From positions 377 through 64,376 of the forward strand of contig JACQWK010000125.1 in assembly GCA_016209525.1 (NCBI GenBank): a stretch of DNA of 64,000 nt, written 5' to 3'. Every line of letters begins with the position of its first letter. The first letter of the stretch is position 1. Shown piece after piece: positions 21,458-46,514 of the stretch. The translations under genes and the position numbers were made by a program. Source of the stretch: Verrucomicrobiota bacterium (GTDB lineage: Bacteria > Verrucomicrobiota > Verrucomicrobiia > Limisphaerales > SIBE01). Under the pieces are notes generated by a model. The model was not told where the DNA came from, searched no databases, and was given only the letters and a program-made list of their open reading frames with translations.

Positions 21458-23698
21458 TCACCGAGCGATGCGGTACTGGGGCAATCGGCGAAGAACCCAC
21501 CTGACAAAACTTGAACGAGGTTGAAGCTCTCTGATTACCCATTTTACGATGTCGGCGTGATTCGCGTGCTCGTATTTTCGATGATGGTAGTTCATCAACT
21601 TCTTTAGTTCGTTCGGGAGATTCCTCTCCTCAAGCAAGGGTTCCGTGACTGCGTTGACGATAATGATCGTACGGTCCGTGGCGAACGCCTGATTGATTTC
21701 CTGCCGTACCCAGTCCTCCGGATCGTGAAGCCGCTGGACTGCGTTGCCGGTCAACAGCAAGAGGAAATTCGGAGCATCTTGAATCTCGTGAAGCAAACGC
21801 TCAGGAAACTGCTCCGCCCCGATTTCCTTGTCCATTGATGCAGCCTTGCCTGCCAGTGCCAACTCAGCGTGGAAGGCATTGGCGAGCGCGCCGCCACTCG
21901 TGTGATGGTAGCTGATAAAGACGACCGGCCAACCAAGTTCGCGCCGGTTGATCCAGATCGCGGTTAACGTCGTCGCGAGCACGGGGAACTCCCAGACGGC
22001 GAGCCAATTGAACCAGACACCTAGCCATCGGTGTGTAAGCAGTCCGATAGCGACTCCCCCCAAACCGAGTGCGGCGCCGATCAGGAAAGCACATCCGGAT
22101 CGAAAACAGCAAAGGCTGAGAGCAAAGACCCCACCCGAGATGATTCCCAAAACGGTTTCCGTGTTTTTTCCTGGCCGGGAGAGCCAATCACCGCAAAGAA
22201 TATTGTCAAAGGCGGTCGCATGAATCTCGACGCCGGGCATGCGTTTCCCTCCGAACCTTGTCCACGGATTGCCGAAGATATCCATCGTCGCCCCCACCAC
22301 ACCAAGCGTACTATCGCCACCGACGAAAACTACTTTTCCCTGAAGCTCATCAATGTGGTTGGTGATCTCATGGAGGGCGACCTTCCTGAACACATCCCCG
22401 GGTCTACCCCGATAGTTCAGCCAAAGAGTGCCCGCTTGACTGGCTCTCTCCACCTTATTGCCGTCGAAAAACCTTGCCGCTTTCCAAATCAGAGTTGTGC
22501 GATCGGGAAGATCAACTACCGAGTCTTGATCAAATTCGATAAGCTTCCCGAACGTGCGGATTACGAAGTCGGGATCGATGGGCCTGAATGCGATCAGCCC
22601 AACTTGGTTGGATGGGATGCTGAGCGACGGAGACGGTGGCAGTGAGACGACTCGGATTGGGGGATCGCTCGCAGTTGGCGTTTCAATGTAGCCAGCACCC
22701 ACGAAGACTTCGCCCTGCCGGATCAACTCTCCCAATTTCCGATCAGTGTCCGCGTCTTGTATCTTGCTCGCGAGGACCAAGTCCATCACCACCAATTTCG
22801 GCTTTGCTTTCTCCAACGTATCCAACAAATGGACGAAATGCTTGCGGTCCAAGGTGCCATCGGGACCACGGTTGTAGTTGGGCTGTCGAAAGGTCTCGTC
22901 ATTTACGACCACTAATGCTATCTCATCGACCTTGACCGGCTGAGAGGTGACAAAAGGAAGATCGTAGCAGAACCTGGCAAGAATACTATCGTAGTTGGCC
23001 CACACAAAGCCCCCGGCGAAAACCGACAAAATCACGGCCGGCCAGTAGGCTTTCTGCAATCGACGTTCTAGTGCCAGTTTAAGACGCCTTCGCCGGTGGC
23101 CCAATTTCACCAGCCATGCCGCCACCTGCGAGAGTATGCTCTTGTCCTTGAGCACTTCAGATATCCGAGCTTCAACCACGCCAAGCTCTCTTAGGCGACC
23201 GGCGTCAAATGCATTCAGCAGCCGTTCAGCGTTGTCTGGGTCGACTTCCCAGCTCGGCGACGAACTCGTGGCCTCTTGTTCGTACCGACTGACTTTGGAC
23301 CCCGGACGGCAAAATGCCTTTAGAAAGTCCGATATTCTATTTTCATCTTCATCGGAAAAACTGGCTCGATCGCCCGATAGCTCTAGAGTTAGTCTTGCCA
23401 AAGGTTCCGAGTAGCGATTGAGCCGTTTGACCAGCTCGGTCCGAGCATGCCGAACCTCCTCCTCCGTAATGCCCTTAGCTTGTCGTGTTATCGAGTCGTA
23501 CTGATTATGATGACGCAAACAGAGAAAAACGAGGTTGTCTTCCGAGGCATTCGAAGGATCGTCATCGATGTGGGCGATCTGGCCGTCCTTTTGAGATTCG
23601 TCTCGTTCCAAGTGCGCGCACAGACAACATCTTCGCCGACAGGAAATGAGGACTCTGGCCTCCACAGCCTTAGGAATTGGCTTCCTTGGTTTTGGCAT
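21458..23698 (-). CDS. membrane protein: N-terminal HNH-like nuclease/zinc-finger domain, TM, periplasmic CHASE2 sensor, three TMs, C-terminal TIR domain
   Basis: 746 aa. HNH-like region at aa 20-67 ('CRRRCCLCAH...GQIAHIDDDPSNASEDNLVFLCLRHHNQYD'). CHASE2-like region at aa ~255-510 ('IALVVVNDETF...KLVVMDLVLAS...GVEIHATAFDNIL'). Three hydrophobic helices at aa ~515-585. TIR-like region at aa 592-746 ('VVFISYHH...FLLLLTGNAVQRLHDPEDWVRQEINQA'). SD-like 'GAAGGAA' upstream of the ATG. Confidence 0.8.
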   Translation of the reverse strand: MPKPRKPIPKAVEARVLISCRRRCCLCAHLERDESQKDGQIAHIDDDPSNASEDNLVFLCLRHHNQYDSITRQAKGITEEEVRHARTELVKRLNRYSEPLARLTLELSGDRASFSDEDENRISDFLKAFCRPGSKVSRYEQEATSSSPSWEVDPDNAERLLNAFDAGRLRELGVVEARISEVLKDKSILSQVAAWLVKLGHRRRRLKLALERRLQKAYWPAVILSVFAGGFVWANYDSILARFCYDLPFVTSQPVKVDEIALVVVNDETFRQPNYNRGPDGTLDRKHFVHLLDTLEKAKPKLVVMDLVLASKIQDADTDRKLGELIRQGEVFVGAGYIETPTASDPPIRVVSLPPSPSLSIPSNQVGLIAFRPIDPDFVIRTFGKLIEFDQDSVVDLPDRTTLIWKAARFFDGNKVERASQAGTLWLNYRGRPGDVFRKVALHEITNHIDELQGKVVFVGGDSTLGVVGATMDIFGNPWTRFGGKRMPGVEIHATAFDNILCGDWLSRPGKNTETVLGIISGGVFALSLCCFRSGCAFLIGAALGLGGVAIGLLTHRWLGVWFNWLAVWEFPVLATTLTAIWINRRELGWPVVFISYHHTSGGALANAFHAELALAGKAASMDKEIGAEQFPERLLHEIQDAPNFLLLLTGNAVQRLHDPEDWVRQEINQAFATDRTIIIVNAVTEPLLEERNLPNELKKLMNYHHRKYEHANHADIVKWVIRELQPRSSFVRWVLRRLPQYRIAR

Positions 23699-23726
23699 GG
23701 TTCTTATTCCTTCGAGAATTCGGCAT

Positions 23727-26700
23727 TCACAGATTCAGCCGAAGGCGCACGAAGAATACACGCTCGCGCGGCAGTTCCGACACGGCGCTCAAAGGCGCAA
23801 GTCTGTAGTCGTCGTCGAGCAGGTTCATCACTCCAAGCGAGAGTTCTCCGTATTGCCGAGGAAAGCGCCAACCGGCTTCGAGATCGAACTGCGCATGTTG
23901 TTCGTCGTGTTCCGCTGCAATCCGGGCGACTCCGTTGATCTCTCCCGAATCCTTCTGCCACCACCACAAAGCCATGGCCCGTCCGAACCAGCCGTTGGCC
24001 GCGTTGAACAACGCCTGCAAGCGCAGCGTGTGCATGTCGGCTTCCTCGGCCGACGTGAACGTCATCGACGGTATGTCTCGATCCAGTTGAGCGCGGCTGA
24101 GCTCGTACTTCCCGCCGAAAGACCAGTTTGCGCCGACCAGTTGATTGACTGTGAACTGGATCGCCTGTTCCTCGTATCGTAAGAATTCGATCGTCTGACC
24201 GGGTTGCCCAGGAGGGGCCCAACTGAAACTGGGGTCGAACTCGAACAGACCTAACGTCCGATCCACAGCCGACCGTGTGATGGTCGCTTGCGCGCCAAGG
24301 AAAGTCCGCGTCGGCAGCTTCACGTCGAGCGCCAGACCGCCAAGATCGAGCCGATGCCCGCTGACCGAACCGACGATTGACTCCGGAATCACCGTGCGAA
24401 ACGCCTGGCTGAAGCCGGCCAGTTGCACGGGTTCGAGTCGGTAGCTTTCGTCGAAGCTCACGCCACCGAGCGACTGAGCGAACATGCCGCGCACCGACAG
24501 TGAGTCCGTCGGACGCCAGATCAGCGCCGCCTTGGGCAGAAGACGCGACTGATCGACGCTGCCTCCGCTGATGGGGGGATGCCTGAAGTTCCGAGGTGAA
24601 TCGAGCGTATCATATTGAAGTCCCGCAGTGAACGATAGCCGTTCCAGTGCTTGCCAGGTGTCATAGGCGTACAAGGAAAGTCGCGAGAATTCCTCGCCGA
24701 TCACGGCGTCATGAAACACGCCGGTGCCCGCCGTATCACCGAAAAAAGAGGAAACCCTGGGATCGCCTGTGAGCCGGTCGCTGGTGGTGAACTCCCCTAC
24801 CTGAACGCGCCCACCCGCAACCAGCGTATTACTATTGAATTGGGCAATGTGGTTGAGTTCACCCATGTAGGTTTCGAAGCGCCCTCGATAAGCGAGGTCG
24901 AGGAGCAGGTCCTGTGGATTTGCCGGGCTGCCAACGAGCACCGTCTTCGTTGTCCCGAGATCCCGAAAGCGCTGGTCATTTTCAAGCCGGCCAGCCAGCG
25001 CCAACGTCTGGTGACCGGGCGACCACTCATGACGCCATATCCCGATGGCAATAGGTTCTTGCCTTTCATCAAATCGGAAGTGCGGCCGGGGGTTGGCGGG
25101 GTCGCGATACTGAAAATTGTCGCCCGATTCATAATCCTGGAACTTCGTCAGCAGGAGTGCCGTATCCGTTCGTGAGATCTGCTGTTTGATTTGCGCATAA
25201 ACCTCAATGCGCTCGAGATCGTTGTTCGGACGCACTCCATCGTTGTGCTGGAAATCCAGATCGACCGCGTAGGCCGAACGGCCAAACACTCCGCTTTGCG
25301 TGGCCAACTGACGAAACTGCCCGTCACTCCGAGCCTCGCCGAATGACGACAAAAAGAAGCCGTCACGCGCGAACAACCGGGTGTATTCCTGGTGCGTCAA
25401 GCCGGGGGATAGGATGCCGGAATCGACGGGTGCCAGCGCATTGGCCAGGAGCAGCTCGTTGAACCACGCGGTTTCGTAGCGCAGATTAAAGCGGGTTGGG
25501 TCACGAAGTGCGTTGAAACTATCCGCCAGAAAGAGATGCGCGGACGGATTCGCGTAGTCGTAAGACACGGCATGAGCGGCCTCGCGCAGCGCGACTTCGG
25601 GCATGCCTGCCCGCAGATAAAGCCGGGCAAGGCTTGTGGCACGGACGGCGCGGTCTTGATCCAGCAGCAACTGAGAACGGTAAACCGCGCGATTGTCGTT
25701 GAGCTTAAGCGAACGCTCCAGGTCAGCGATAGCCTCGTTGACTCGATTCTGCGCGTATAGATCAAGGGCAGAGTAAAGCCACGGAGTCGGATCATTTGGA
25801 TCCAATCCCCGGGCCAACTCAAGCTGCGCCTGGGCGTGCTTGATGTCGTAAGTTTCCGCAAAGGCCTTGCCGAGATAACTGCGCAAAAGAGATCGGTTGC
25901 CTCCCACCAGCGCAGCCGCCTGAATATCATCCAACCCCGCGCGCTTTTCCCCCGCGCGAAACCAGAGCAGTCCGCTCCCGAGCCAGCCTTCCGGCAGCAT
26001 GGGATCGAGGTCGCGCGCCTTATCGAAGCTCAGGCGCGCTTCGTCGATTCGGTTCTCCGCCGCCAACACGAAACCGCGCATCGCGTAAGCAGCGGCGTGC
26101 TCAGGGCTATTGGCCAAGGCTTTGTCCAGGGCCTCGCGCGCCCGACGCAGCCTACCGAGGCTGAATTCCAGCTCGGCGAGCCGAGCCAGGGCAAGGCCAT
26201 TGGTCGGCGAGTAGGCGACAGCCTGAAGCGCAGCGTCTCGAGCCAGTTCAAGGCGATTGGTCATGCCCGTTCGGGCCTGCAACCAAAACGACCGTCCCAG
26301 CCAGGCAGTCGCCGATTTTCCAGGGTCATTTGTGACCATGTCGGTGTGTGCCACCACGGCGATCAGCTCTCTCAGACCTCGGACCGTTGGAGAGTCCGCC
26401 TGCACTTGATTGAGGAGCGCCGAGGCGTCACCTGCCTCCCCGGCGGCCAGGCGCAACGCTGCGTAATAAGTCCTGCCGGCGTCCGTCAATTGGGGGAGAG
26501 TCGTGGGAAACTCTCGCCCTGCGGCACGCAGGTTGCCCCGCCGCCATGCGTCCAACGATTGGGCGAAGTTCGCCGCCTCATCCGGTGAAAACTGAAGTTC
26601 CCGCGTGTCGAGGATGGCCGGATAGTAAAGCCACCACTGGACTCGGTTCGTGGCCAGGAGTGCAAACTGCGGAGAAACTTGGTTGGTCTCCAGAATCCGT

Positions 26701-27137
26701 GGCGTTTGACCCTCTTCGGCAATCCCGACTTGGCCCGAGGCAACTTCCACCGTTCCGTTCGTATTCCACAGTCTCACCGTGCCATCAAAGACCCTCACCA
26801 GCGTCCGGCGTGGTCCATTGGATTCCACCAGAACTTCATACTCCGTGTTGATCGCTCCGGCGTTAGCGTAAGGAGTTTGAACCTGTGTGCCCGGCCTTCC
26901 CGTGGCAAACAAACTGACCGCCCCCCAAAACAATTCCATGAAGCTCGGCTTCTTGCGATCGGGCTTGTAGGAGCTTTGCTCGCGCACAACCGCAACAACA
27001 CGGTTCGTAGCCACCAGAACCTCGCGCTCTCCTATCCTGGTTTCCTGCTTGACCTCTTGTGAAACCACATCCAGGGAGATTACGAAGGAAATCACACAGG
27101 CGAAACGAGGCCACCCGAGGATGAATCGCGTCTTCAT
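23727..27137 (-). CDS. outer-membrane protein: signal peptide, FecR-like domain, TPR array, TonB-dependent-receptor-like beta-barrel
   Basis: 1136 aa. FecR-like region at aa ~80-145 ('TLVRVFDGTVRLWNTNGTVEVASGQVG'). About 350 aa of TPR-like helices. C-terminal barrel motifs ('LSFTAGLQYDTLDS', 'LPKAALIWRPTDSLSVRGMFAQS', terminal 'FFVRLRLNL'). The start codon overlaps the upstream stop as ATGA at 27134-27137. Confidence 0.75.
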   Translation of the reverse strand: MKTRFILGWPRFACVISFVISLDVVSQEVKQETRIGEREVLVATNRVVAVVREQSSYKPDRKKPSFMELFWGAVSLFATGRPGTQVQTPYANAGAINTEYEVLVESNGPRRTLVRVFDGTVRLWNTNGTVEVASGQVGIAEEGQTPRILETNQVSPQFALLATNRVQWWLYYPAILDTRELQFSPDEAANFAQSLDAWRRGNLRAAGREFPTTLPQLTDAGRTYYAALRLAAGEAGDASALLNQVQADSPTVRGLRELIAVVAHTDMVTNDPGKSATAWLGRSFWLQARTGMTNRLELARDAALQAVAYSPTNGLALARLAELEFSLGRLRRAREALDKALANSPEHAAAYAMRGFVLAAENRIDEARLSFDKARDLDPMLPEGWLGSGLLWFRAGEKRAGLDDIQAAALVGGNRSLLRSYLGKAFAETYDIKHAQAQLELARGLDPNDPTPWLYSALDLYAQNRVNEAIADLERSLKLNDNRAVYRSQLLLDQDRAVRATSLARLYLRAGMPEVALREAAHAVSYDYANPSAHLFLADSFNALRDPTRFNLRYETAWFNELLLANALAPVDSGILSPGLTHQEYTRLFARDGFFLSSFGEARSDGQFRQLATQSGVFGRSAYAVDLDFQHNDGVRPNNDLERIEVYAQIKQQISRTDTALLLTKFQDYESGDNFQYRDPANPRPHFRFDERQEPIAIGIWRHEWSPGHQTLALAGRLENDQRFRDLGTTKTVLVGSPANPQDLLLDLAYRGRFETYMGELNHIAQFNSNTLVAGGRVQVGEFTTSDRLTGDPRVSSFFGDTAGTGVFHDAVIGEEFSRLSLYAYDTWQALERLSFTAGLQYDTLDSPRNFRHPPISGGSVDQSRLLPKAALIWRPTDSLSVRGMFAQSLGGVSFDESYRLEPVQLAGFSQAFRTVIPESIVGSVSGHRLDLGGLALDVKLPTRTFLGAQATITRSAVDRTLGLFEFDPSFSWAPPGQPGQTIEFLRYEEQAIQFTVNQLVGANWSFGGKYELSRAQLDRDIPSMTFTSAEEADMHTLRLQALFNAANGWFGRAMALWWWQKDSGEINGVARIAAEHDEQHAQFDLEAGWRFPRQYGELSLGVMNLLDDDYRLAPLSAVSELPRERVFFVRLRLNL

Positions 27138-30100
27138 TCGGGAGGCAGGAGAATCGCACGTAAGAACGCCTGACCGGCGAGTTCTTGCACCGTCAAGGGG
27201 ACGGTCTGCGGGCTATTGGTCAGTGTCAGCGTACGCAGCGTCCGCCACGGTTCGGCCAACTCCAGCGAGTGCCGAATCTCGATTGCGTATTTCCAATCCA
27301 GAGCGCCCAAAAGCTCCAAGCTCTGCGCGGGGTTGAAACGCAAAATGGGCGGCCAGCCGTAACTCGCTCGGTAGGCCTGATCCTGTCCTGCGACCAAGTT
27401 AATCGTCGTGGTTTTTGGTGTCTGGTAGCCAGGCACTGGTTTGAACTCCAGGCTGTAGTCCACGCCAGTGGGCAGAATCCGGCTGGCTTGCACGGCATTC
27501 GTGAATTCCATCGACGGGATTTCTTTGAGATGCCAGGCAGCGCCAGCGGTTACCGCGGCAGCAGGTTCCAGTGTCACGCTTAGCGTCTGGAAGCCAAACG
27601 TGGCGGCACCAACAATCGGTGAATTGAAGACAAATACTCCGCCGCCCGTGAAGTTAGTTCCCAAATCGGCCGATGAGGCCGCCCGGTTGATCAGATCGGC
27701 GACCCGGCTGTCAATCGCACGAACCGTGGATCGTCCGTCGTGGGAACCGAGATAAACGGCCGCGGGGAAATACGTGCGATTGGTTGCGGGGAACGGGAGC
27801 ACGAAGAGCGGGCCTCCGCTGTTGCCCGGAAAACTGAGGAAATCCGCTGTTGAATAAAGGCATCCCCCTTCAGGAACAAAACCGTAGTTGCGAGCCTCCG
27901 TCTCAAACATACGTCCGTCAGCTTCGCCCGTGAGAGGATAACCTGCGAGGAACTTCTCTCCGGAGACGCCCTCTGGTCCCAACAACCATTCGTTTATCTC
28001 CGCATCAGATAATAAGAAGCCGCTTTCACCGTCGCGTGCCACGGGCTGGTCAAAATAAATCGCGGCGATATCCCATTGTTGTGAGGCTCGTGAGGAAACG
28101 CCAGGTTTCAACCCTTGTTCCCGCTCCTTCCGGCGCTCGATCAGATACTGGTCCATCACATACCATCCGAGCCCCCTCATTGGCCGGGATTCATAGTCAC
28201 CAGCGTGCCGTTCGTGGAACCACTCGACCGATGTCACGAAGTTCGTAGTCGAATCGTCAAAAAGAACGTGTGTTGCGGTGAGCACGACCTTCTTCCGAAC
28301 GGCAATGCCGCTTCCCCAGCCGAGAGGTGTTCGAAGCTGGCCAACCAACGGCAACGGACGCTTAAGCGTGGTCCTGGTCGCGAGCGCATCCTCAATCTCG
28401 GCGTAGCTGAGTACAGGCCGTGCGGTGCGCCTCCCTGGAGGAGGTGCAGGCTCATAATCCACACGGACGATATTGTCCACACCGGAAACGAGCGTGACCA
28501 GCCGAGCAGGTGGAGTCAGCCAGTCTCTCACCGGGCGACATTCGATAATGTTGGTGGCACCCGCTGGCAGTCCGGTCCACGGGTACCCACTGGGCAGATA
28601 GCCCAGCTCGCCTCGGAGCCGCCAACCTGCGTCCAACCTGTGCACCTCTGGGGGCTCAATCATGACGATCAGGGAGCCGCTATCCCGCGCCAGCCTACTG
28701 GCGTAGCGCGCGATGCGGCCTGTCACCTCTTTATTTAGGACCGGAATAATCGCAGCAGGTGGTTCGTCAAATCCGGCAATAGGGCGAAATTGAATCGCAT
28801 AATTCCCGACGTCGAGATTGCCGAGAGTCTGGCCGCTGGAATGCCACACCAGCTCCCACGGCAACCTCCAGCCCCCGCGTTCTGCTGCCGGAGCCTCGAT
28901 AGTCACCCTCAATGCGCCGCTTGCGGTGCGTGCATTCGGCGGCACGAGCCTCATGAACGATGTCGGCATCGCCGGCACTTCGTCGTCCGTGATGGAGACC
29001 GTGGCGATGCTTGGCGCGCCCAGCATCGCGCCGTTTGAAGGAGAACTAAGTGAAATCGTCAGTTCTCTGGTGCGATCAAGCACAAAGTTATCAAGCAGCC
29101 TGATTCGAATCTCCTTAGTGTCTTCGTTTCTGGCAAAATCCAAGCGGCCCGGCTCCAGGAGATAATCACGCCCGGGAACGGCAGTTCGGTCGCTCACAGC
29201 ATAACTCACACTGGCAACCGAGTTGCCGGTTCTCAGCACCGGGATTTTGAGCACACCCGCACTCTCGTTGGTTTGAAAGGAATCCTGACTGAAGCGAACA
29301 ATAACTGGATCGTTCACCTCCAGCTTCGCATCGGTGCTCGCGGCTGATCCGACCAGATTGCTTACAACTACACCATAGGTGCCACTCTCTGGTTTCTGCA
29401 CCTTCTTCAGCACGAGTGTCGAATTTGTCGCTCCGATGATGTCAACTCGGTCCCTTCGCCACTGATAGCTCAAAGGCAGCGTGCCGGTAGCCGCTACCGA
29501 GAAGGTAACATCCGAGTCCACCAGGACAGTTTGGCTTTGAGGCTGGACGGTAATTGAAACTGGAACCGCGTAATCTCCCAAGAGGCTGATGACATACGGA
29601 GATTGCGCCCAGTCGTTCGGCGTCTGCGCACCGATGCCGTAAAGCCGACCGTCGAGCTCCACAACGGAACTAAATCCGTGGGCCATTTGGAACGGGCTCT
29701 CTATCTTTCCTTCCGATGCTGGAAACATGCGGATCACTCCATTCCAGAGAGAGAGGAAGTAAGCCCGGCCTGTTTGAGAAAAGTAGTCCGAGCGGCCCGC
29801 GACGCCTTTTGATCCCCGCGGGTCAACGAAAGGAAGAGTCCAGTCCACGCCGTTGGTTGTGCTCCAAAGGCCCAACGACACCACGACCCGATCTGGAATC
29901 ATGACGGATGAAGCGTACAGATAGTCCTGCGTTGGTACAAAACCTTGGAGGGCGAATGGCTGAAAACCTCGAACCAAGCTCCAATTGATTCCATCGACCG
30001 TTCTAAAAAGCTCGGATGATCTGGAGATTTCCTCACTAGTCGCAACGTACAAATGCCCCTTCCACTCGGTCATCGCGACAATTAGTTTGTTTGGGCCACC

Positions 30101-32104: not shown

Positions 32105-32151
32105 CTCATGTTCTCTCTCATCTGGTGCCGGACTAGGCCGTCAGCGGCGAC

Positions 32152-35100: not shown

Positions 35101-37161
35101 GGGATCCCACATTGGATCAACCGCAATAGGTGCGGAAATACTAATTCTGGCGAGGTTGGTGCGGGGAACGCCCCCAATCGACTCAAAGAAGCCACCGACG
35201 TAGAGGTTCGTTCCATCCACGGCGAGTGCGCTTGCTGCCGAGCCACCACCAGTCATCGGGGTCCACAACGGATCAGCGCTGCCATTCCCCTCTGTGTTGA
35301 TCTTTACCAATTCTCCCAAGTTCATTCCACCAACGGTGCCAAGACTTCCGGCGATGAACAGGTTAGTGCCACTCAATGCAATGCTAAGAATTTCAAATTC
35401 CGACATTCGCCTTGAGATTTTAGGGTTCCAGGCAGGGTCGGAACGATCTGATACGAGCGAATCGAATTTCGCGACCGCGTTTCTCGAATTGCCGCCGATT
35501 GTAGCAAACGCTCCGGCTACAAAGAATGCCGATTCATTGCCGACAATGGCGGTGACAACACCGTTGGGATCTGGTCGCCAGTTGGAATCGAGCCTCCCGT
35601 CAGTATTGATTCGCGCGAGATGAAGGCGTTTCAGACCTTGGGCACTAAGGAAATCACCCCCGACTACAATCTTGCCGTCGGGTTGTCTATAGATCGCGTT
35701 CACTCTCCCCGGAGACTCTACTTGGGTTGGAAATGACGAATCATACCTGCCGGTGACGGAATCCAGCTTCGCGAACCCTAGCACTTGCAGATCGTCCACC
35801 TCCGTAAACTGTCCCCCAGCAGCTATTAACGAGCCACTGGACGCGATCGTCTGAACGCCGGACAGTCTCGGCATCCACTTGTCGTCTGCAACTCCTGAGC
35901 CTGTGGTGCCGATTCGTGCGATGTTGGTCAGGCTCCGCCCGCCGATTTGAACATAGTTACCGATTACAATCAGATTTGTCCCTGAAATGGAGAGGAGCCA
36001 CACATCTCCGGTAGAACGATATTCATCCTTTGGCTGGGGATCCCAGGCGGAATCGAGTGAACCGCTGCCGGTGGTCGAGACCTTTGCAAGATTTCGACGG
36101 TTCTGCCCGGCAATGCTCCCAAAATACCCCGCGACATATAGATTGTCCGCATCCGATGCAATGGAATTGACCTCATGGTAGAATCCTCCTGGAGTGAATG
36201 GATTTGGTACCCAAAGAATGTCAGCAGCCCCGGTACCTCCAGCACTCAGCTTGGCAAGGTTCGTTCGAGCTCTTCCACCGATGAAGTCGAAATTCCCTCC
36301 AACGAAAAGGTTCGAGCCAACGAGAGCGAGCGAGTTGATTCTGGGAATTACATATCCGCTTTCACCTGGCTTGGAAAAGACGGCTGGATTTGGTTTCCAG
36401 ATAGGATCGGTAGCTCCGACACCTTGCAAGGCCACTTTGGCGAGGTTTGTGACAGAATTCTGACCTCCGATTTCCAAGAAATACCCGCCCACGTAGAGGG
36501 AGTCTTTGTCGGCGATCATGCAGTAAATCTCAGCCGATGCAGGTTGCCCTCCGATTGGATTCGGTGCCCAGTTCGGATCTGACTCTCCACGGCCCCCGAT
36601 GGAGACTTTGGCCAACCCATTACGGATTGCACCCTGAACGCTTCGAAAACTGCCTCCCACGTAAAGATTGGTGCTGACTAGGGCCATGCAATTCACCGTC
36701 CCACTGCCACCCCCGCCCGAAATGCCACTAAGGCCCGGATCCCACGTAGCGTCCATGGAACCATCCTGATTGAGGCGCGCCAGATTACGGCGCGGCACGC
36801 CACTCACGGTAAAGAAATCGCCACCAATGATCATCTGCCCATCGGGTTGAATCACGATGGCCTTCACGACCCCGCCTTTGGACAGATTCAGATTCGGTAA
36901 CGTTGATGGATGTGTTTGTGCCGAAGCGGCTCCGTTCGAGAATATGAACCACGCAACGAGGGTCAATCGAACTGCGTGCAACGCCAACGCGCGAAAGCAC
37001 GCGAGTTGTGACCGCGCAATCCGTTTACCGACCGCAAGGTAGCTTAACGTGGATCCTAGACGAATTGAGCAACTGGCCGAATCTCGAGGTAATGCTCTCA
37101 TTTCACTGTCCCCTTTGGGTTGCCGTGGCTGGACACGAGTTGTGATGCTCATTCTCACCAT
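32152..37161 (-). CDS. giant secreted protein P2: delta-60/DUF5122-type beta-propeller repeats plus the shared Calx-beta / beta-sandwich / serine-protease C-terminal module
   Basis: Repeats such as 'GGDFFTVSGVPRRNLARLNQDGSMDATWDP'. Same C-terminal module as P1 and P3 ('LTAAHVLF', 'QWDIAAIYF', 'FPGNSGGPLCV'). Candidate starts at 37161 (overlaps the P3 stop), 37152 or 37101. The hydrophobic signal region is 'LTLVAWFIFSNGAASA'. Confidence 0.85.
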   Translation of the reverse strand: MVRMSITTRVQPRQPKGDSEMRALPRDSASCSIRLGSTLSYLAVGKRIARSQLACFRALALHAVRLTLVAWFIFSNGAASAQTHPSTLPNLNLSKGGVVKAIVIQPDGQMIIGGDFFTVSGVPRRNLARLNQDGSMDATWDPGLSGISGGGGSGTVNCMALVSTNLYVGGSFRSVQGAIRNGLAKVSIGGRGESDPNWAPNPIGGQPASAEIYCMIADKDSLYVGGYFLEIGGQNSVTNLAKVALQGVGATDPIWKPNPAVFSKPGESGYVIPRINSLALVGSNLFVGGNFDFIGGRARTNLAKLSAGGTGAADILWVPNPFTPGGFYHEVNSIASDADNLYVAGYFGSIAGQNRRNLAKVSTTGSGSLDSAWDPQPKDEYRSTGDVWLLSISGTNLIVIGNYVQIGGRSLTNIARIGTTGSGVADDKWMPRLSGVQTIASSGSLIAAGGQFTEVDDLQVLGFAKLDSVTGRYDSSFPTQVESPGRVNAIYRQPDGKIVVGGDFLSAQGLKRLHLARINTDGRLDSNWRPDPNGVVTAIVGNESAFFVAGAFATIGGNSRNAVAKFDSLVSDRSDPAWNPKISRRMSEFEILSIALSGTNLFIAGSLGTVGGMNLGELVKINTEGNGSADPLWTPMTGGGSAASALAVDGTNLYVGGFFESIGGVPRTNLARISISAPIAVDPMWDPRPWDLFRDSAGHVYSLVVGENYVFCAGSFDVIGGQQRRAIAKLNKFGAGEADPLFAPNVTLNLIYALGVNETNVFIGGYELQNEGGGLIRLSKTDGSYDPSFAPHPAGTANTADSGVTALLVVGDDLYAGGSFTTIGNHLGEEREDSGYPVRIGGLPLTSFAFLPTVAAPVASHDTSSTLTIRRNPRDGFEVTHFRIRAPNNVNLFLGNGQLPVAAGSFITVAQGEAGLRFDLTAANGSVTVVSAVNDTAAGAGTASSTIALSSKPNPEDVFRFSQDLFRADENAHVLRIPVLKSGAKPASVSYSVTGGTAEPGRDYLLEQGRMDFAAKEESREIQVKLLDDLVLDGPRQLTIELSLPSNGTTLGTPNRTIIEIRDDEEPLTPTSFAMLREPLPRSGLGAVRVSIEPNGLPGAAWRLPWDLSWHSSGHTLSNLDVGLYVIQFRAVANFVQPNAIIAPVQDRLTTSRTVRYTSALSAVTTGNLIVRLGPDEALPGVGWRLRGDSEFQASGFRLADLLSGTNHILEFRSTNGWYTPAPRFVTILPNAENVVTAFYEPASPLAPGTRIPQTVPRFVEIGEALNETLRRPLVFVGQLRSKAGFGSGIAVRKKVVLTAAHVLFDEETTNFVESVDWLPELHVGEYESRPIRAQGWYVFEKYLRQRRLEREEGKPSWVATRASQQWDIAAIYFDQQIARNGGSGFLLSDALDNEWILGNSEKLLAGYPMGRNEDGKLFVTEARQYRFVNDGNQLFSTSEISSFPGNSGGPLCVLYTNSLTYFPAAVYLGTADKLSVFRSIDSQAAELIMRAASSADLGTNFTGGGVLVFNTAVAGARFGIQKLTVRLEPQEAVAAGAGWRVSEKGGAFTSLPEATTDLVSGTNYTVEFKSVPGWLTPTNFPVNLPEGQDAGLTVTYESTTPVLTATGNGIFVSGPVGKVVEIEFTPVLGPAAAWTKVQTVTLEVNPVLAIGPPWPTDSAGYYRAKWQQ

Positions 37162-40100
37162 TTGGCTCGGTAGTATCCGGCTGGGTTGGGCGTCCAAGGC
37201 GGCCCGATGACGAAAACAGGGTTTGCTTCCAGCGTAACCGTCCGGACTTTCGTCCATGACGCCAGCGCACCCAGAGCTGGGGTAAACTCAATGTCCACCA
37301 CTATACCGACCGCACCGGAAACAAAAAGGCCGGATGAAGAAGCAATCCATCGGACGGGCAGTGCTGACGGGTCGCGTTCGTACGTCACCGTCAGTTCGGC
37401 ATCCTGGCCCTCAGGCAAATTTACGCTGAAATTCGTGGGAATTAGCCATCCGGGGACCGATTTGAATTCCACGGTGTAATTGACGCCGGATACCAGGTCT
37501 GTTGTCGCCTCGGGCATACCGGTGAATGCGCCGCCTTTCTCACTGACTCGCCACCCAGCGCCCGCGGCGACTGCCTCTCGAGGTTGCAGGCGGATGGTCA
37601 ATTTCTGAACCCCAAACCGCACACCCGGCACCGGCGGGTTGAGCACAAGCACACCGCCACCGGTGAAGTTCGTGCCGAGTTCCGCTGAAGAAGCGGCACG
37701 ATTGATCAGTTGCGCCACCTCGCTGTCGATGGCGCGAACGACGGATCTGTCATCCAAGTTCCCAAGATAGACGGCCGCTGGGTAAAATGTGGGATCACCC
37801 ACTGGCCCCGCGAGCACGCAGAGCGGTCCGCCGCTGTTGCCCGGATAGCTGACAAATTGAGAAGATGAAAACAAGCGGCCACTCGCGCGGGCAAACAGGT
37901 ACTTACGCGACTCGATTGCATGAAGCCGGTTGTCCGCTTGTCCAGTGAGCGGATAGCCTCCGAGGAAACTGACCTTCGCGGTGGCCAGCCATTCGTTGTC
38001 GGTCGTGTCCGAGAGCAGGAAACCGCTTTCGCCGTGCAGAGCGATATCCTGGCCGAAGTAAATTGCGGCGACGTCCCATTGTTGCGAAGCTGGAGTGGGC
38101 CCGCTCGGAGGAATCCGTTCGCGTTCCGACCGGCGCTGCTTGAGGTACTCCTCAAACACAGCCCATCCTATCGCGCGAATAGGACGTGGATCGTAGTCGC
38201 CTGCGTGGAGTTCGTGGTGCCAAGTGATTTCGGAAACGAGATTCGTCGTGCTTTCATCGAAGAGCACATGGGCAGCCGTAAGAACGACTCGCTTCCGCAC
38301 GGCGATGCCGCTGCCATAACCGGCGGCAGACCTTAGCTGTCCCATCAGTGACAGCGGACGGCGCAACGGCTCACTCACACCATCCTCGATGGCCTGGTAG
38401 GTGCGGAGAGGGACTGGCTGGTACACTTCAGGGGCGACCGGCTGCGCGGGGGAATAGGTGGCGGTGACCACGTTGTCTAGATTCGCCAGCACGGTAACGA
38501 GCCGTGCGGGTGGAGTGGTCCAGTCTCTCACGGCCTGGAACTCCAAAATGTAATTCGTGCCCGGTGGAAGATTCCCTAGCCGGTAGGCGTTCGTGAAAAA
38601 GCTTCTTTCGCCGCGAAGCCGCCAACCTGGGCCGGGCACGGGCGCGTGCAGGACTTCCGGTGGGCCGATGCGAACCACCAAGCTACCCGATGGCCGCGCC
38701 GCGTCGCGCCGGTAAAGGAATGTGCGGACCGTGGGATCACGCTGGTTGAGCACCGGAATTTCCTCGCTGATCTCCGGCTCACGATAGTCTGCGATGGGCC
38801 GGAATTCGAGCGGGTAATTGCCTACATCGAGGTTGCCAAGGATTTCGCCGCTTTCGTGCCAAACCAGTTCCCAAGGCAACCGCCACGCGGCATTGGTGGC
38901 GACTGTGGGCTCAAGATAAACCTGTAATCGGCCAGTTGCCTTCCGGTCCTCGGGGAGAATCAACTGGGCAAACAATGTCGGCGTCACAGGCTTTTCGTCG
39001 TCGATGATGAAAATGGTGGCGACATACGGCATGCCCAGCGTGGCGCCATTCGAAGGTGAGGTAAGCGTGATGGTCAGTTGCTTTGTCCCGTCGAGGATGA
39101 AGTCATCAAGGAGCGTGAGCAGAATATCCCGGCTCTCTTCATTGGCGCCGAAGTTCAGCCGCCCCGGTTCGAGGCGATAGTCGCGGCCAGGTTCAGCGGT
39201 CCCGATGGTCACCGAGTAACTGACCGCGGCCACCGCAGCACCGACCTTGTGCACGGGGATTCTGAGCAAGCTTGCGTCTTCAGTTGTTTCCAGCACGTCC
39301 TGACTGAAGCGAAAAACAACATTCACCTCCAAGCTCGCGTCGGCGCTTGTGACTTGCCCTGCGGAATTGCTAACAACGACGCTGTAATTGCCGGCGTCCG
39401 TTTTCTGTACGCTCGGCAATATGAGTGTCGCGCTCCTCGCGTCTGGAATATTGACCCCGTCCTTGCGCCACTGGTAGCTCAATGGCAGCGCGCTCGTAGC
39501 CGTGACAGTGAGCGTGACATTGGTTCCCGCAGGAACCATCTTGCCTTGCGGCTGGGCCGTGATCGTCGGTGGCCCGAAAACTGTAATCGAGATCGGAGCT
39601 GATGTTCTGGTCACGCCAGAATCATCCGTTGCCGCCACCGTCAAAGTGTGAGAACCAGCCGGCGCATTAGTCCAGGCATTGGTGTAAGTGCCGCTCACAC
39701 TTGCGTTGGTCGCGATGCTAATCAGATTGGACGTGGAATTGGTCGCAGCGAAGAATTCGACTCGCGTAACTCTCCCGTCGGAATCTGAGGCGGACGCGGC
39801 GATGGGAATCGCTTGTCCGACGAAGAAGGTCTCGCCATTCGTGGGTGCGACAATGCGGACGATCGGGGCCAAGTTGGTCGGCCACGCTGGCACCGCGGGT
39901 CCAATCAGCCGCCAGGTTCCCTCCACCGTCAACGGTTTCGACCCCGCCCGGATAACCAGATTCGTTCCCTCCAGAAATCGAAACTCCACTGATTGGTCCG
40001 AGCGCTGCACCACCAAGTCCATCTTCTTATCTCCGTCCATGTCCAACGGTCGAACCACCTGCCAATTCCCATCCGCCGCCTCCACGGGCTTCAACCAGAT

Positions 40101-42971
40101 ACTCTCCACCCACTTTGTCCCCTCCATCCTCCAAATCGCCAAGCTCCGGTCTTTGCCCGCCAACAAAATGTCGTCCCGGCCATCTCCACTGAAATCCGCC
40201 ACCCCCACTGCAATCAGCCCCGCCTCTGGAACGCTCGGATTGGTCAGGGTCGCATTCGTGAGCGTCATCCCTTCCATTAGCCACACCGCCAAAGTCCCGT
40301 CCTCATGCTGAAACAGCAGGTCGGTCTTGCTGTCCAGATTGAAATCCCCCGTCCCTGCCACCCGCCAACGCTGGTCCCCTGGATTCCGGGGCTCTATCAG
40401 CCCGCCCGTCCTCTGCCTCGTCTGATTCATCAACCATATCGCCAACGTCCCCTCCTCATCCTGAAACAGCAAGTCCGGCCGCAAATCCTGGTTGAAGTCT
40501 CCCGTCCCCACCAGCCGATAGCTCGCATCGCTCTTGTCCGGCACAAGGAACCCTCCTGAAGCCCGATTGGTCCCGTTCATCAGCCAGACCCCAAGGTAAT
40601 TCTCCGCATCTTGAAATACCAAATCCGACAACCCGTCCAGGTTGAAATCGTCTTTGGTTTCCGAATTGACTTTCAACTCAAACGCACTGCTCGCCTTCGC
40701 AAGCCCGTCGCTCACGGTAACGGTAATCCTGACAGTGCCCTTCTGCTGGGGAGCCGGATTGATGATCATCGTCCGGTTGGTCCCGTTCCCCAGCACAACG
40801 ATGTTCGTGCTCGGGACAAGCTGCGGGTTGGAGGATATGCTCGCCACGACCAGGTTGGTGACCGGCGTGTCTGCGTCGGCCACGGTAAAGCCAATCTCTT
40901 TCGTCGCTTTGTCCACATAGGTAATCTGATCTGGGATGAAGGAAATCCTCGGCCAAACATTGGTCGGAAAAGCCGGTCCAATCAGCCGCCAGGTTCCCTC
41001 CACCGTCAGCGGTTTCGACCCCGGTCGGCTAACCAGGTTCGTTCCTTCCAGAAATCGAAACTCCAGCGATTGGTCCGAGCGCTGCACGACTAAGTCCGTC
41101 TTCTTGTCTCCGTCCATGTCCAACGGTCGAACCACCTGCCAATCCCCATCCCCCGCCGCCACGGGCTTCAGCCATACAGTCCCTACCCGGTTGGTCCCCT
41201 CCATCTTCCAAATCGCCATGCTCCGGTCTTTTCCCGCCAACAGAATCTCGTCCCGGCTCTCCCCGGTAAAATCACCCACCCCGACCGCAAACAAACTCTC
41301 CTCCGGAATGCTCGGATTGGTCAATGATGCATTCGTGAGCTTCGTCCCGTCCATGAACCACACCGCCAGCGTCCCGTCCTCATGCTGAAATAGCAGATCC
41401 GTCTTGCTGTCCAGATCGAAATCCCCTGTCCCCGCCACCCGCCAACGCTGGTCCCCAGGGTTGCCTGGCGCCAGAAATGATCGACTCATCCGGTTGGTTC
41501 CCTGCATGAACCAGACCTCCAGAGTTCCGTCTCCAAGGTGCAAGAGAAGGTCGGGCTGTAGATCCTGGTTGAAGTCTCCCGTCCCCACCAGCCGATAGCT
41601 CGCATCGCTCTTGTCCGGCACAAGGAACCCTCCTGAAGCCCGATTGGTCCTGTTCATCAGCCAGACCCCAAGGTAATTCTCCGCATCTTGAAATACTAAA
41701 TCCGACAACCCGTCCAGGTTGAAATCGTCTTTCGGACCAGGAACAATCGTAAGCTTCGCAGCTTGGCTCATGGCTCCTCCGGCGTTATTCCTAACACTCA
41801 CAATGTAATCACCCGAGTCCGCCTTCTTCACCCCCGTCATGGTCAGTATGGAGTTCGTCGCTCCAGGGACATCGCTACCATTGAATTGCCACTGATAGCC
41901 CAAAGGCGGCAAGCCCAAGGCCGTCACGTACAAAGTCACGTTTGCTCCCCGGACAGCGGTCTGGCTTTCCGGTTGAAAAGAGATTGTCGGCGATTGCGCG
42001 GATACGCTCACAGCGTAAACTGTCGCGCCAAAGTTCGCTGGCGTGCCGCCGTCAATCACGATCAGGGACGCTGACCAGGTGCCGTCGATCTTGCGGATCC
42101 AAAAATCATCAGGGCTTGATCCGGTTGCAGGAGTGCTAGCGAGGAGCAGGCCCATGTCCTCGTTGGTATCGATGCCAGTAAACACGACCGTCCAAGTGAA
42201 CGTGTCTGGCACCGTCAGCGAAAGTCCCGCCGCACGTTCGGAGGAGAAGCCCTTTTTCAGCGAGAACGCACTGCTTTTGTAGATCGGCGCGGAACCTGGT
42301 CTCCCATCAGGGCCATCGTTTGGATAGATTCGAAGTTCGCCGCGTTCGTCACCATTGGCGTTGTCGCTGAGGTAGTAATCGAAGAGAAAGTCGGTAACTC
42401 GCCACCGCCCAGTCCCCTTACCCGAAAGGAAGACTTGATCTCCAAATTCGAAGCCGTTCCCCAGAGAAAAGTAGTTCTTAGGTGGGATGCTCTGGTTCTC
42501 ATAAACGACCTGGGGACCAATCGGGGGTCTTTCGACTATCGTAACCTCAAAACTGACATTGGTACTCAGAGATCCGTCTGAGACTGAAACCATGATCTTC
42601 GCCGAGCCGGTTTGGCGCGGGGCGGGGACGATGGTGATGGTTCGATAGGTGCCCAAACCACCGAACGTGATGTTGCCATCGGGAATCATGTTAGGATTCG
42701 AGGATGTGCCGCTTAAAGTCAGTTCCTGCGGCGGAGTCGCATCGTCGCCGACTCTTACCAGTGCGACCGCAATGTCATCTACGGTGATGACTTTATCTGC
42801 GACAGGAGTGATCGTCGGCGGAGAGTTATTTCTGGAGGCGCCACGACTCGGCAGGCATAGGTTTTGAAGGACGATCAGGGCGATGATCAGACCAAACAAA
42901 GCTAGCCTTCTGGCAGTATCCGGCCAGTCTCTGGCCCGAACCACAACCGTGTGTGATGAGTCCCTTCTCAT
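37155..42971 (-). CDS. giant secreted protein P3: cadherin-like domains, Ig, two FG-GAP/VCBS-type repeat blocks, Ig I-set, plus the shared Calx-beta / beta-sandwich / serine-protease C-terminal module
   Basis: 1938 aa. N-terminal anchor or signal 'RRLALFGLIIALIVLQNL'. FG-GAP-like repeats ('DFNLDGLSDLVFQD..G.L.VW'). Protease triad context 'LTAAHVLF', 'QWDVAAIYF' and 'YPGNSGGPLCV'. SD-like 'TGAGGC' about 9 nt upstream of the ATG. Confidence 0.85.
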   Translation of the reverse strand: MRRDSSHTVVVRARDWPDTARRLALFGLIIALIVLQNLCLPSRGASRNNSPPTITPVADKVITVDDIAVALVRVGDDATPPQELTLSGTSSNPNMIPDGNITFGGLGTYRTITIVPAPRQTGSAKIMVSVSDGSLSTNVSFEVTIVERPPIGPQVVYENQSIPPKNYFSLGNGFEFGDQVFLSGKGTGRWRVTDFLFDYYLSDNANGDERGELRIYPNDGPDGRPGSAPIYKSSAFSLKKGFSSERAAGLSLTVPDTFTWTVVFTGIDTNEDMGLLLASTPATGSSPDDFWIRKIDGTWSASLIVIDGGTPANFGATVYAVSVSAQSPTISFQPESQTAVRGANVTLYVTALGLPPLGYQWQFNGSDVPGATNSILTMTGVKKADSGDYIVSVRNNAGGAMSQAAKLTIVPGPKDDFNLDGLSDLVFQDAENYLGVWLMNRTNRASGGFLVPDKSDASYRLVGTGDFNQDLQPDLLLHLGDGTLEVWFMQGTNRMSRSFLAPGNPGDQRWRVAGTGDFDLDSKTDLLFQHEDGTLAVWFMDGTKLTNASLTNPSIPEESLFAVGVGDFTGESRDEILLAGKDRSMAIWKMEGTNRVGTVWLKPVAAGDGDWQVVRPLDMDGDKKTDLVVQRSDQSLEFRFLEGTNLVSRPGSKPLTVEGTWRLIGPAFPTNVWPRISFIPDQITYVDKATKEIGFTVADADTPVTNLVVASISSNPQLVPSTNIVVLGNGTNRTMIINPAPQQKGTVRITVTVSDGLAKASSAFELKVNSETKDDFNLDGLSDLVFQDAENYLGVWLMNGTNRASGGFLVPDKSDASYRLVGTGDFNQDLRPDLLFQDEEGTLAIWLMNQTRQRTGGLIEPRNPGDQRWRVAGTGDFNLDSKTDLLFQHEDGTLAVWLMEGMTLTNATLTNPSVPEAGLIAVGVADFSGDGRDDILLAGKDRSLAIWRMEGTKWVESIWLKPVEAADGNWQVVRPLDMDGDKKMDLVVQRSDQSVEFRFLEGTNLVIRAGSKPLTVEGTWRLIGPAVPAWPTNLAPIVRIVAPTNGETFFVGQAIPIAASASDSDGRVTRVEFFAATNSTSNLISIATNASVSGTYTNAWTNAPAGSHTLTVAATDDSGVTRTSAPISITVFGPPTITAQPQGKMVPAGTNVTLTVTATSALPLSYQWRKDGVNIPDARSATLILPSVQKTDAGNYSVVVSNSAGQVTSADASLEVNVVFRFSQDVLETTEDASLLRIPVHKVGAAVAAVSYSVTIGTAEPGRDYRLEPGRLNFGANEESRDILLTLLDDFILDGTKQLTITLTSPSNGATLGMPYVATIFIIDDEKPVTPTLFAQLILPEDRKATGRLQVYLEPTVATNAAWRLPWELVWHESGEILGNLDVGNYPLEFRPIADYREPEISEEIPVLNQRDPTVRTFLYRRDAARPSGSLVVRIGPPEVLHAPVPGPGWRLRGERSFFTNAYRLGNLPPGTNYILEFQAVRDWTTPPARLVTVLANLDNVVTATYSPAQPVAPEVYQPVPLRTYQAIEDGVSEPLRRPLSLMGQLRSAAGYGSGIAVRKRVVLTAAHVLFDESTTNLVSEITWHHELHAGDYDPRPIRAIGWAVFEEYLKQRRSERERIPPSGPTPASQQWDVAAIYFGQDIALHGESGFLLSDTTDNEWLATAKVSFLGGYPLTGQADNRLHAIESRKYLFARASGRLFSSSQFVSYPGNSGGPLCVLAGPVGDPTFYPAAVYLGNLDDRSVVRAIDSEVAQLINRAASSAELGTNFTGGGVLVLNPPVPGVRFGVQKLTIRLQPREAVAAGAGWRVSEKGGAFTGMPEATTDLVSGVNYTVEFKSVPGWLIPTNFSVNLPEGQDAELTVTYERDPSALPVRWIASSSGLFVSGAVGIVVDIEFTPALGALASWTKVRTVTLEANPVFVIGPPWTPNPAGYYRAKW
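39870..41733 (-). repeat. internal tandem duplication inside P3 (two FG-GAP blocks of about 780 bp, period about 1078 bp)
   Basis: Blocks at about 39870-40655 and 40951-41733. Stretches such as 40560-40655 and 41639-41733 are nearly identical by eye. Confidence 0.7.
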
Positions 42972-43700
42972 TGATTCGCCTCAATTTAGGACCCGTCCAA
43001 GAGCAGGGGGGGCCGTCGGTTTATCGTGAGGAGTCGCTGTGGGAGTGCACTCTCCGGGGAAGCGACTTTCGCGCCACGCCGCCAATTCAGGGACGAAGTG
43101 GACTCGATCACACCGCAAGGGGTTTTGCCTGATCTGCCGGGCGGGAGTGGTGCCCAGAACAAGGGGCTGTGGGTTAAGTCTTGCGTGGACGAAGGGTATC
43201 CCTCCCTGCAACCGTGAATTGTTGGATCCCTTCTTCGCATCGCTCCAGACCTCTTACGCACGACTATGCCTCGAATGGCGTCTTTATATCAAAGACGCCA
43301 AGATAGGCAAAAAGAAAACTCGATGGCGGCGCGGCCGAACCTCCAGCGAACTTGGAGCGAGGACGGCCTCATCTCCCTGCGGGTTTCGCGAACCGCGCTC
43401 TGGTTCCCGTTCGTTCCGCCATGACACGAACAAGCGATGTTTGAGTCAGTCGCTAATGATTCCAATGCTTGCAGCTCCAATCGGGTCAGGTAAATTGAGA
43501 CGACGACATAATTCCAGTACGAACTTTGGCGGCAACGGCGGAAGACTTTTCATGAAGCGTGCGACCGAACCTAACCATACGTGTTTGAGATTCTACCTGA
43601 CCGACCGCGCTTGTGAGGTGCGATTGTCGGGACGATCCGCGGCTGTCACTTCCACGGTCAACGGACCACTCTCAGGCGCTTCGCTGGTCGTTCGATATTG

Positions 43701-44120: not shown

Positions 44121-44135
44121 GCAACCCCGCGGGGC

Positions 44136-44167
44136 CAGGGTGGGGCGCGCGCGCGCGCCCCACCCTG
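44136..44167. repeat. perfect 32-bp GC-rich palindrome
   Basis: 'cagggtggggcgcgcgcgcgcgccccaccctg', flanked by 'ccccgcgggg' and 'ccccgccgggg'. Confidence 0.85.
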
Positions 44168-46370: not shown

Positions 46371-46381
46371 GAGCCGTTTGT

Positions 46382-46431: not shown

Positions 46432-46514
46432 CCGTACGCCCCGAGTGAGAATTGCTGGATCCGGCTTGGAGTTAGGATTCGGCAGAATCGGCCTCAGCGT
46501 CCGCAAGCACTGTT

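Follow-up and report, generated by a model that had tools for sequence, protein, structure and literature searches.

What is the function of five adjacent minus-strand genes that encode three giant exported proteins with putative protease domains, an outer-membrane protein (OMP), and a membrane-embedded sensor with an effector-type domain at either end? The question was raised by positions 21458-42971 of a 64,000-nucleotide (nt) stretch of DNA from a Verrucomicrobiota bacterium (assembly GCA_016209525.1, contig JACQWK010000125.1, positions 377 to 64,376), which at its full length is called the window below. A first-pass annotation, made from the letters of the sequence, had placed the set in no described system and had offered trans-envelope signalling as one alternative; of the readings weighed here, this alternative gave the best fit. 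The cluster is tentatively read, with somewhat less than even confidence, as a sensory pathway across the cell envelope, of the NsrA/CHASE2 type, in which the input arm and the output arm are both altered.

The five open reading frames (ORFs) of the first-pass annotation were confirmed from the ORF listing at the following positions:

21458-23698, minus strand: sensor/effector gene (ORF, 746 amino acids, aa)
23727-27137, minus strand: OMP gene (ORF, 1136 aa; predicted signal peptide at 27060-27137)
27134-32104, minus strand: P1 gene (ORF, 1656 aa; first ATG at 32104, signal-peptide Met at 31903)
32152-37257, minus strand: P2 gene (ORF; 1701 aa in the longest form, ~1650-1670 aa from the starts at 37161, 37152 or 37101)
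37155-42971, minus strand: P3 gene (ORF, 1938 aa)

The operon-type junctions described earlier were likewise found on reading the sequence. An ATGA overlap joins the P1 stop to the OMP start, the OMP stop is separated from the sensor ATG by a 28-nt spacer containing GAAGGAA, and the P3 stop is flanked by P2 ATGs at 37161 and 37152. The Met closest to the signal peptide is that at 37101 in P2 and that at 31903 in P1, so the P3-P2 gap may amount to ~55 nt and the P2-P1 gap to ~250 nt instead of 47; an internal promoter may lie ahead of P1. Co-transcription of the five genes is plausible. Scans for consensus promoters and terminators scored no better than shuffled sequence.

Co-conservation across genomes

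Co-occurrence across genomes, named by the first-pass annotation as a way to check the grouping, was examined by scanning species-representative genomes with an alignment of the protease module (single peptide pattern, flank of up to 10 kb). The retrieved loci were annotated with hidden Markov models (HMMs) built in this analysis. The scan returned 59 loci with the protease module, almost all labelled Verrucomicrobiota and nearly all from metagenome-assembled genomes (MAGs). The partner genes were distributed as follows:

all 59 loci: OMP present at 31, CHASE2 gene present at 18
22 loci with at least 2 kb of flank on both sides: OMP present at 18/22, CHASE2 gene present at 7/22

The gene set is conserved together. 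Three gene orders were seen, namely OMP-protease-sensor, sensor divergent from OMP-protease, and the protease-OMP-sensor order of the window, and the genes of the retrieved loci were mostly packed end to end, often overlapping or adjacent. Loci with a CHASE2-TIR protein had protease-module genes in five of five cases and the OMP in four of five. The reciprocal search, conducted via CHASE2 relatives, located an OMP next to the sensor in L001, L072 and L074. On long metagenome contigs, module homologues were found beside FecR-barrel OMPs, CHASE2 sensors or both, and a distant CHASE2-TIR gene (27% identity) adjoined a gene for a 1199-aa FecR-TPR-barrel protein and a gene for a giant Calx-beta protein with the protease module. 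The OMP is regarded as the hub gene of the cluster because its partners are CHASE2 sensors, proteases or the two together.

The possibility that surface-protein, OMP and sensor genes lie side by side by chance and form no functional unit would suit the uninformative promoter and terminator scans as well as the possible gap of ~250 nt before P1. It is nevertheless very improbable and already disfavoured, because dozens of genomes that are distantly related (25-43% identity) show the same association in shuffled gene order, and because coding regions overlap or abut.

One or two protease paralogs were present per locus, with the exception of L042, in which nine consecutive module-matching ORF pieces (3-20248), several of them apparently frameshifted, run up to a CHASE2-TIR gene, a pattern suggestive of expansion and decay of the paralogs. 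Seven loci (L027, L058, L059, L060, L062, L043 and L057) carry a Verrucomicrobia-type cluster on MAG contigs labelled Bifidobacteriaceae, Bifidobacterium, Klebsiella, Candidatus Acidoferrum or Proteobacteria, and these discordant labels are probably binning or labelling errors.

The outer-membrane protein and the CHASE2 sensor

The composition of the OMP agreed with the first-pass annotation, which had described FecR, TPR and barrel parts:

26772-27041, minus strand: FecR domain (Pfam, 21.4 bits, under the 24-bit cut-off)
25683-26258, minus strand: TPR region (Pfam)
23730-25370, minus strand: C-terminal barrel of the TonB-receptor type, without a plug (Pfam TonB_dep_Rec_b-barrel, E=3e-11)

The weak FecR call is rescued by the homologous OMPs, which match FecR strongly. 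No Pfam match to Plug or STN was obtained in the OMP.

A full-length counterpart was found in rhizobia. A profile of 26 verrucomicrobial OMPs was aligned with rhizobial proteins over 1016 columns, that is, over the full length (hhalign, 99.6%, E=1.5e-24), and the OMP itself matched a rhizobial FecR-domain OMP in BLASTP (E=2e-8). On an Ensifer chromid, located by tblastn, a CHASE2 cyclase gene begins within the end of the gene for a 1222-aa FecR+TPR protein, and an orthologue of the latter protein (67% identical) is encoded on S. meliloti pSymB. NsrA comprises ~1200 aa with a barrel in residues 600-1200, and together with CHASE2 cyclases it is needed for perception of an extracellular, protease-sensitive protein signal, uL2 (PMC7529298, PMC13001267). 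The rhizobial protein matches NsrA, an assignment that rests on size, the pSymB replicon and the partner gene, not on a locus tag. The NsrA/CyaK (CyaD1, CyaD2) system of Sinorhizobium meliloti thus resembles the window cluster in its OMP of ~1100-1220 aa with signal peptide, FecR, TPR and C-terminal barrel, and in a sensor gene of the type transmembrane (TM) helix-CHASE2-TM that directly follows the OMP gene, with a stop/start overlap in the Ensifer pair. The two differ in output (a class III cyclase there, TIR and HNH-TRADD-N here), in the giant proteases attached to the window cluster, and in phylum.

Related pairings are on record elsewhere: a Campylobacterota cluster comprises a CHASE2 cyclase, a FecR-domain OMP, a TPR protein and a phosphodiesterase (PMC9239204), and the Burkholderia BiofilmReg operon joins a LysM-FecR protein with a CHASE2 histidine kinase (PMC5192318). 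In both, as in the window, a FecR-domain envelope protein, with TPR, is recurrently linked to a CHASE2 sensor, whereas their outputs are cyclases or histidine kinases and they lack protease genes, TIR and HNH; in Campylobacterota, TPR is also a separate protein. The earlier statement that the set belongs to no described system therefore does not hold for the OMP-CHASE2 part, given these two clusters and the rhizobial pair, which is homologous over its full length and in gene order. The FecA-FecR-FecI pathway likewise has a barrel OMP and a FecR domain that relays a signal across the periplasm; in the window, by contrast, the FecR domain is located on the OMP itself and the inner-membrane partner is a CHASE2 protein. 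Cell-surface signalling of the Fec type was rejected, since the OMP has no Plug or STN match and no extracytoplasmic function (ECF) sigma or anti-sigma factor was present among the flanking ORFs scanned.

Four domains were delimited in the sensor/effector protein, with models from AlphaFold 2 (AF2):

23414-23698, minus strand: HNH-like zinc-ribbon nuclease domain (residues 1-95; His43 at 23570-23572; from motif, family and AF2)
23144-23401, minus strand: TRADD-N-like domain, beta-alpha-beta-beta-alpha-beta (residues ~100-185; from the PF20694 matches of homologues and AF2)
22160-23002, minus strand: periplasmic CHASE2 domain (residues 233-513; Pfam E=3.3e-28; AF2 predicted local distance difference test score, pLDDT, 80-97)
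21494-21931, minus strand: SARM1-like TIR domain (residues 590-735; catalytic Glu667 at 21698-21700; phmmer against PDB)

The whole-protein AF2 model, built from a 25-row alignment, was usable for the CHASE2 and TRADD-N-like parts only and useless for HNH and TIR, for which a model from a deep alignment of the N-terminal domain and the sequence match to SARM1, respectively, were substituted. AF2 helices were located at residues 219-250, 511-531, 534-559 and 565-587. Together with hydrophobicity they predict a cytoplasmic N-terminus, one TM helix, the periplasmic CHASE2 domain, three TM helices and a cytoplasmic C-terminus; with this arrangement of one plus three helices, both enzymatic ends would lie in the cytoplasm. 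The first-pass annotation had proposed the HNH-like, CHASE2 and TIR parts, with CHASE2 in the periplasm and the two flanking domains in the cytoplasm, all of which stand as predictions, and had missed the TRADD-N-like domain.

The product of the gene caller comprises 573 aa and starts inside the TRADD-N-like domain. The 746-aa ORF is supported because residues 1-184 are homologous to a large family, with 35-45% identity from residue 1. A TIR_2 match is precomputed on the called product (P0001), and a look-up of this product returned no record. The HNH-like domain has the motif CxxC..H43..N55..C60xxHH; across the family C24, C27, H43, C60 and D68 are invariant, and N55 and H63/H64 are invariant or nearly so. 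Its match to Pfam HNH_3 is sub-threshold (E=0.012), the model from the deep N-terminal alignment reaches a pLDDT of ~97, and the best PDB match in Foldseek is the HNH effector of CBASS Cap5 (E=5e-3, prob 1.0). Cap5 (HNH-SAVED) shares the HNH fold over ~95 residues; the window protein has neither a SAVED domain nor a cyclase partner. The family, inadequately modelled by Pfam, comprises 2023 representative clusters (50% identity) at E<=1e-3, with 50-63% identity over ~90 aa. The domain is almost always N-terminal and is fused to TRADD-N, TIR, STAND NTPases, TPR, Metallophos, ResIII and others; in the closest relative of the N-terminal module of the sensor (P0065) it is fused straight to a TIR domain. 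A metagenome scan with the single protein returned one relative of the N-terminal domain and no second HNH-TRADD-N-CHASE2-TIR protein.

The TRADD-N-like segment gave a confident AF2 model. PF20694 (TRADD-like_N) was matched by 12 of 25 aligned homologues (best E=3e-7) and not by the window segment itself, and PDB searches, by Foldseek and by a profile of the segment, produced no TRADD match. Bacterial TRADD-N proteins have been described as conflict proteins with an N-terminal effector (HNH is listed), a TRADD-N domain and a variable C-terminal sensor (Kaur, Iyer, Burroughs, Aravind 2021; PMC8195603). The window protein would conform in the order of its HNH-like and TRADD-N-like domains and in family partners such as TIR, STAND NTPases and TPR. 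It departs from the class in its C-terminal region, a membrane-embedded periplasmic CHASE2 domain followed by a second effector, TIR; CHASE2 is mentioned in that paper only on a separate caspase-EACC2 partner protein (PMC8195603). With respect to novelty, the putative HNH-TRADD-N N-terminus would belong to a described class, and the earlier statement appears to stand for the protease partners, the TIR output and the CHASE2 fusion: literature searches on CHASE2 with TIR, TRADD-N, trypsin or Verrucomicrobia returned nothing describing the present cluster. The OMP-CHASE2 core appears to be of a known, barely characterised kind; the protease partnership, the TIR output and the fusion of HNH-TRADD-N, CHASE2 and TIR appear undescribed.

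The best PDB relatives of the TIR domain are SARM1 and TIR-1 (phmmer, E=2e-13). In the alignment Glu667 falls on E642 of SARM1, and all five CHASE2-TIR proteins retain it; by sequence the domain appears to be NAD-cleaving and SARM1-like. Unlike SARM1, the sensor has no ARM or SAM domains, and its TIR would be controlled by a periplasmic sensor, not by the NMN/NAD+ ratio.

Among 21 CHASE2 proteins associated with such clusters, eight carry a Ser/Thr kinase, eight a class III cyclase and four TIR_2, the remaining one being the TIR protein of the window, in which no Guanylate_cyc match was found. To judge from these domain assignments, sensor outputs are interchangeable across clusters, and the counts indicate that TIR stands where a conventional signalling output would otherwise be. 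The sensor of the window appears to represent an ordinary signalling pathway rewired to an output of the cell-death type.

Kinase or cyclase outputs on 16 of the 21 sensors would also suit a protein-foraging regulon. Here, the proteases of a polymer-degrading verrucomicrobium would be secreted or periplasmic and acquire nutrients, the OMP would sense or admit peptides, and the CHASE2 protein would regulate expression or metabolism. The chromosomal surroundings of the cluster, with their many glycoside hydrolase and housekeeping genes, point the same way, as does the regulatory function of NsrA-type systems in rhizobia (PMC13001267). The regulon is judged unlikely, given that conflict systems typically use HNH, TRADD-N and SARM1-like TIR domains as effectors or adaptors (PMC8195603), that the scan of flanking ORFs revealed no receptor for a signal made by TIR, and that highly variable scaffolds on a constant module suit recognition more than bulk digestion. 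The same doubt attaches to its sensor side, on which TIR would make a signalling nucleotide resembling cyclic ADP-ribose without killing and HNH-TRADD-N would be an evolutionary add-on.

In the other well-sampled CHASE2-TIR locus (L001-L004; ~11600-19230 in L001), the genes next to the sensor encode a SLATT_1 protein of 555 aa, a TIR_2-TPR protein of 1255 aa and a MAP3K_TRAF_bd/TPR-S/cyclase protein; downstream effectors of a TIR signal could be among these proteins, whose domains belong to the vocabulary of conflict systems. In L008 (2770-6217), an OMP-protease pair is preceded by genes for a Sigma70_r2 protein and a Ser/Thr kinase-WD40 protein, with no CHASE2 sensor there, and in L073 a CHASE2 kinase is paired with a Sigma70_r2 gene; a sigma-factor branch of OMP/CHASE2 pathways may exist.

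The exported proteins and their constant module

P1, P2, P3 and the OMP all have leader-like N-terminal sequences. The N-terminal scaffolds of the three giants are mutually unrelated in Pfam, comprising an NHL propeller and Ig in P1, a DUF5122/delta-60 propeller in P2, and Big/Ig domains with an FG-GAP propeller in P3 (matches to FG-GAP_3, Ig_3, Big_7, Calx-beta and Trypsin_2, behind a hydrophobic leader). Within the N-terminal Ig/Big-repeat part of P3, the GC skew is strongly negative (-0.24 at 40001-42000), with no tandem DNA repeat. A C-terminal module of ~720-750 aa is common to all three (50-60% identity):

37158-39311, minus strand: constant module of P3 (50-60% identity to the P1 and P2 modules)
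37653-38342, minus strand: protease domain of P3 (triad motifs; His at 38268-38270, Ser at 37833-37835)
32155-34284, minus strand: constant module of P2 (identity to the sister modules), with the protease at 32644-33330 (triad motifs)
27137-29296, minus strand: constant module of P1, with the protease at 27638-28342 (motifs at His1279, Asp1345 and Ser1429)

The module consists, in this order, of a Calx-beta domain, two beta-rich repeats, the trypsin-like domain, a third repeat and an end domain of ~90 aa. The repeats share the motif GWRLPWE...SG...NL..GNY..EF.PV.G, and the end domain closes in [FY]YRA (YYRAKW in P3). The first-pass annotation had proposed trypsin-like proteases with intact triads on variable scaffolds, and the motifs bear this out at the level of prediction. 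His, Asp and Ser occur in that order, with a GxSGG motif, in P1-P3, as in serine peptidases of the S1/chymotrypsin fold; VVLTAxHV, DxAAIYF and GNSGGPL are preserved in all three paralogs; and across 27 aligned family members His and Asp never vary, while at least 90% retain Ser. Trypsin_2 matches in P2 and P3 reach 25.4 and 22.8 bits, under the gathering cut-off of 27.6 bits, and the Pfam scan gave no Trypsin_2 match in P1; the weak calls are rescued by the conservation of the triad across the family. PF13365 or PF00089 was found on several module homologues. No Pfam family covers the beta-rich repeats or the C-terminal domain, and a PDB profile search with the protease module returned Calx-beta matches and marginal cathepsin G matches, and nothing else. 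Module homologues are rare (39 matches, all unnamed), and the module is always C-terminal, in ORFs of ~650 to >4000 aa. A protease module of ~720 aa that is specific to Verrucomicrobiota and had no annotation is hereby defined.

Sorting signals of the type IX secretion system, PEP-CTERM, autotransporters and the type I secretion system were sought on the proteases, and none was found in Pfam/NCBIfam, in part by judgement from the sequence.

The proteases have Sec leaders, no recognised outer-membrane secretion signal and a shared conserved C-terminal domain without a family. These features would be expected if the OMP were a translocator or anchor for the C-terminal module and the CHASE2 protein monitored secretion or envelope stress. 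The tighter linkage of the OMP with the proteases (18/22) than with CHASE2 (7/22), the ATGA overlap between the P1 stop and the OMP start, and the missing Plug match in the barrel would also be accommodated. Such an export or anchoring device is improbable, however: the full-length OMP family occurs in rhizobia and at other loci without such a protease, paired only with CHASE2 sensors, NsrA is genetically a component of signal perception (PMC7529298), and FecR domains act as signal-relay domains.

A candidate pathway and the surroundings of the cluster

In the tentatively preferred NsrA/CHASE2-type pathway, the three Sec-exported giants would bind proteinaceous or surface targets through their differing propeller/Ig scaffolds, and the shared trypsin-like module, as a constant protease and docking part, would cleave the bound targets. 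The cleavage product, or the engaged protease itself, would be detected by the FecR-TPR-barrel protein in the outer membrane. The relay is proposed by analogy: within the periplasm, the FecR/TPR part of the OMP would touch the CHASE2 domain of the inner-membrane protein. On receiving the signal, the sensor would rearrange or oligomerise, which would lead to NAD+ cleavage by TIR and possibly to DNA cutting by HNH; SARM1 and Cap5-type effectors are activated by oligomerisation. The outcome would be growth arrest, altruistic death or an NAD-derived signal, triggered by an extracellular cue.

A bolder version would make the cluster an outside-in 'death receptor', in which surface bait-proteases report an attack or a foreign protein and the OMP relays the signal to CHASE2 and on to the TIR NADase and the HNH nuclease held by TRADD-N. 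This version is doubtful, and so are its candidate triggers, namely phage, a predator, a competitor or lysed kin. If true, recognition outside the cell would lead straight to programmed cell death or dormancy, and a CHASE2 sensor would for the first time have a ligand-generating mechanism.

Several observations weigh against the preferred pathway or its death-type output. About two thirds of the protease-OMP loci with adequate flank lack a neighbouring CHASE2 gene, and L072 and L074 have the OMP-CHASE2 pair without a protease; the three parts are thus separable. Among all loci examined, the window's protein alone combines an HNH-TRADD-N N-terminus with a CHASE2 sensor. PADLOC and NCBIfam scans of the five proteins assigned no defence system and gave noise-level ThsB/endonuclease matches (E 0.003-0.06). 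A cyclase or kinase is usual at the position of TIR, which weakens a pure defence reading, and the ordinary outputs on most sister sensors imply an ancestral role in regulation, not death. Since an outer-membrane secretion signal was not recognised on the proteases, their surface or extracellular location is putative, and what the proteases do, and in which direction information flows, is pure inference.

CHASE2 is among the commonest extracytoplasmic sensor domains of bacteria, and for its ligands and activation mechanism the NsrA/CyaK work is the only functional lead in the literature searched. The cluster family constitutes a natural experiment, in which one OMP-CHASE2 relay is combined with kinase, cyclase or TIR outputs and the attached proteases could generate or capture the CHASE2 signal; what CHASE2 senses, and how, is thereby made experimentally approachable. 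The version in the window places two putative death-type effectors, the SARM1-like TIR and HNH-TRADD-N, under the control of a periplasmic sensor. If functional, it would mean that immunity-like TIR/TRADD-N modules of bacteria can be driven by extracellular cues and not only by intracellular signals of infection.

The neighbouring genes are ordinary chromosomal ones, encoding tyrosyl-tRNA synthetase, ribosomal protein S1, epimerases, GH92, GH5, an alpha-galactosidase and an AsmA-like protein. No tRNA was detected in the window, and the scan detected no tandem repeats. The interval of ~3.5 kb that separates the GH92 gene from the P3 start (43000-46500) holds no Pfam-recognisable gene and has a GC skew of -0.15. 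A minus-strand ORF at 44989-45564 gave weak PHROG matches to helix-turn-helix/excisionase proteins (E ~0.005-0.01), and another at 44346-44780 has a GREHYHWLIG motif that recalls Rep/HUH proteins; the region may be what is left of a small mobile element. On the other side of the cluster, the ~800 bp below 21458 contain no convincing gene. At 19858-20650 (plus strand), two ORFs overlap in different frames, the first with a signal peptide and the second resembling the C-terminal part of a glycosidase, and the pair, located immediately downstream of the sensor gene, may represent a frameshifted pseudogene.

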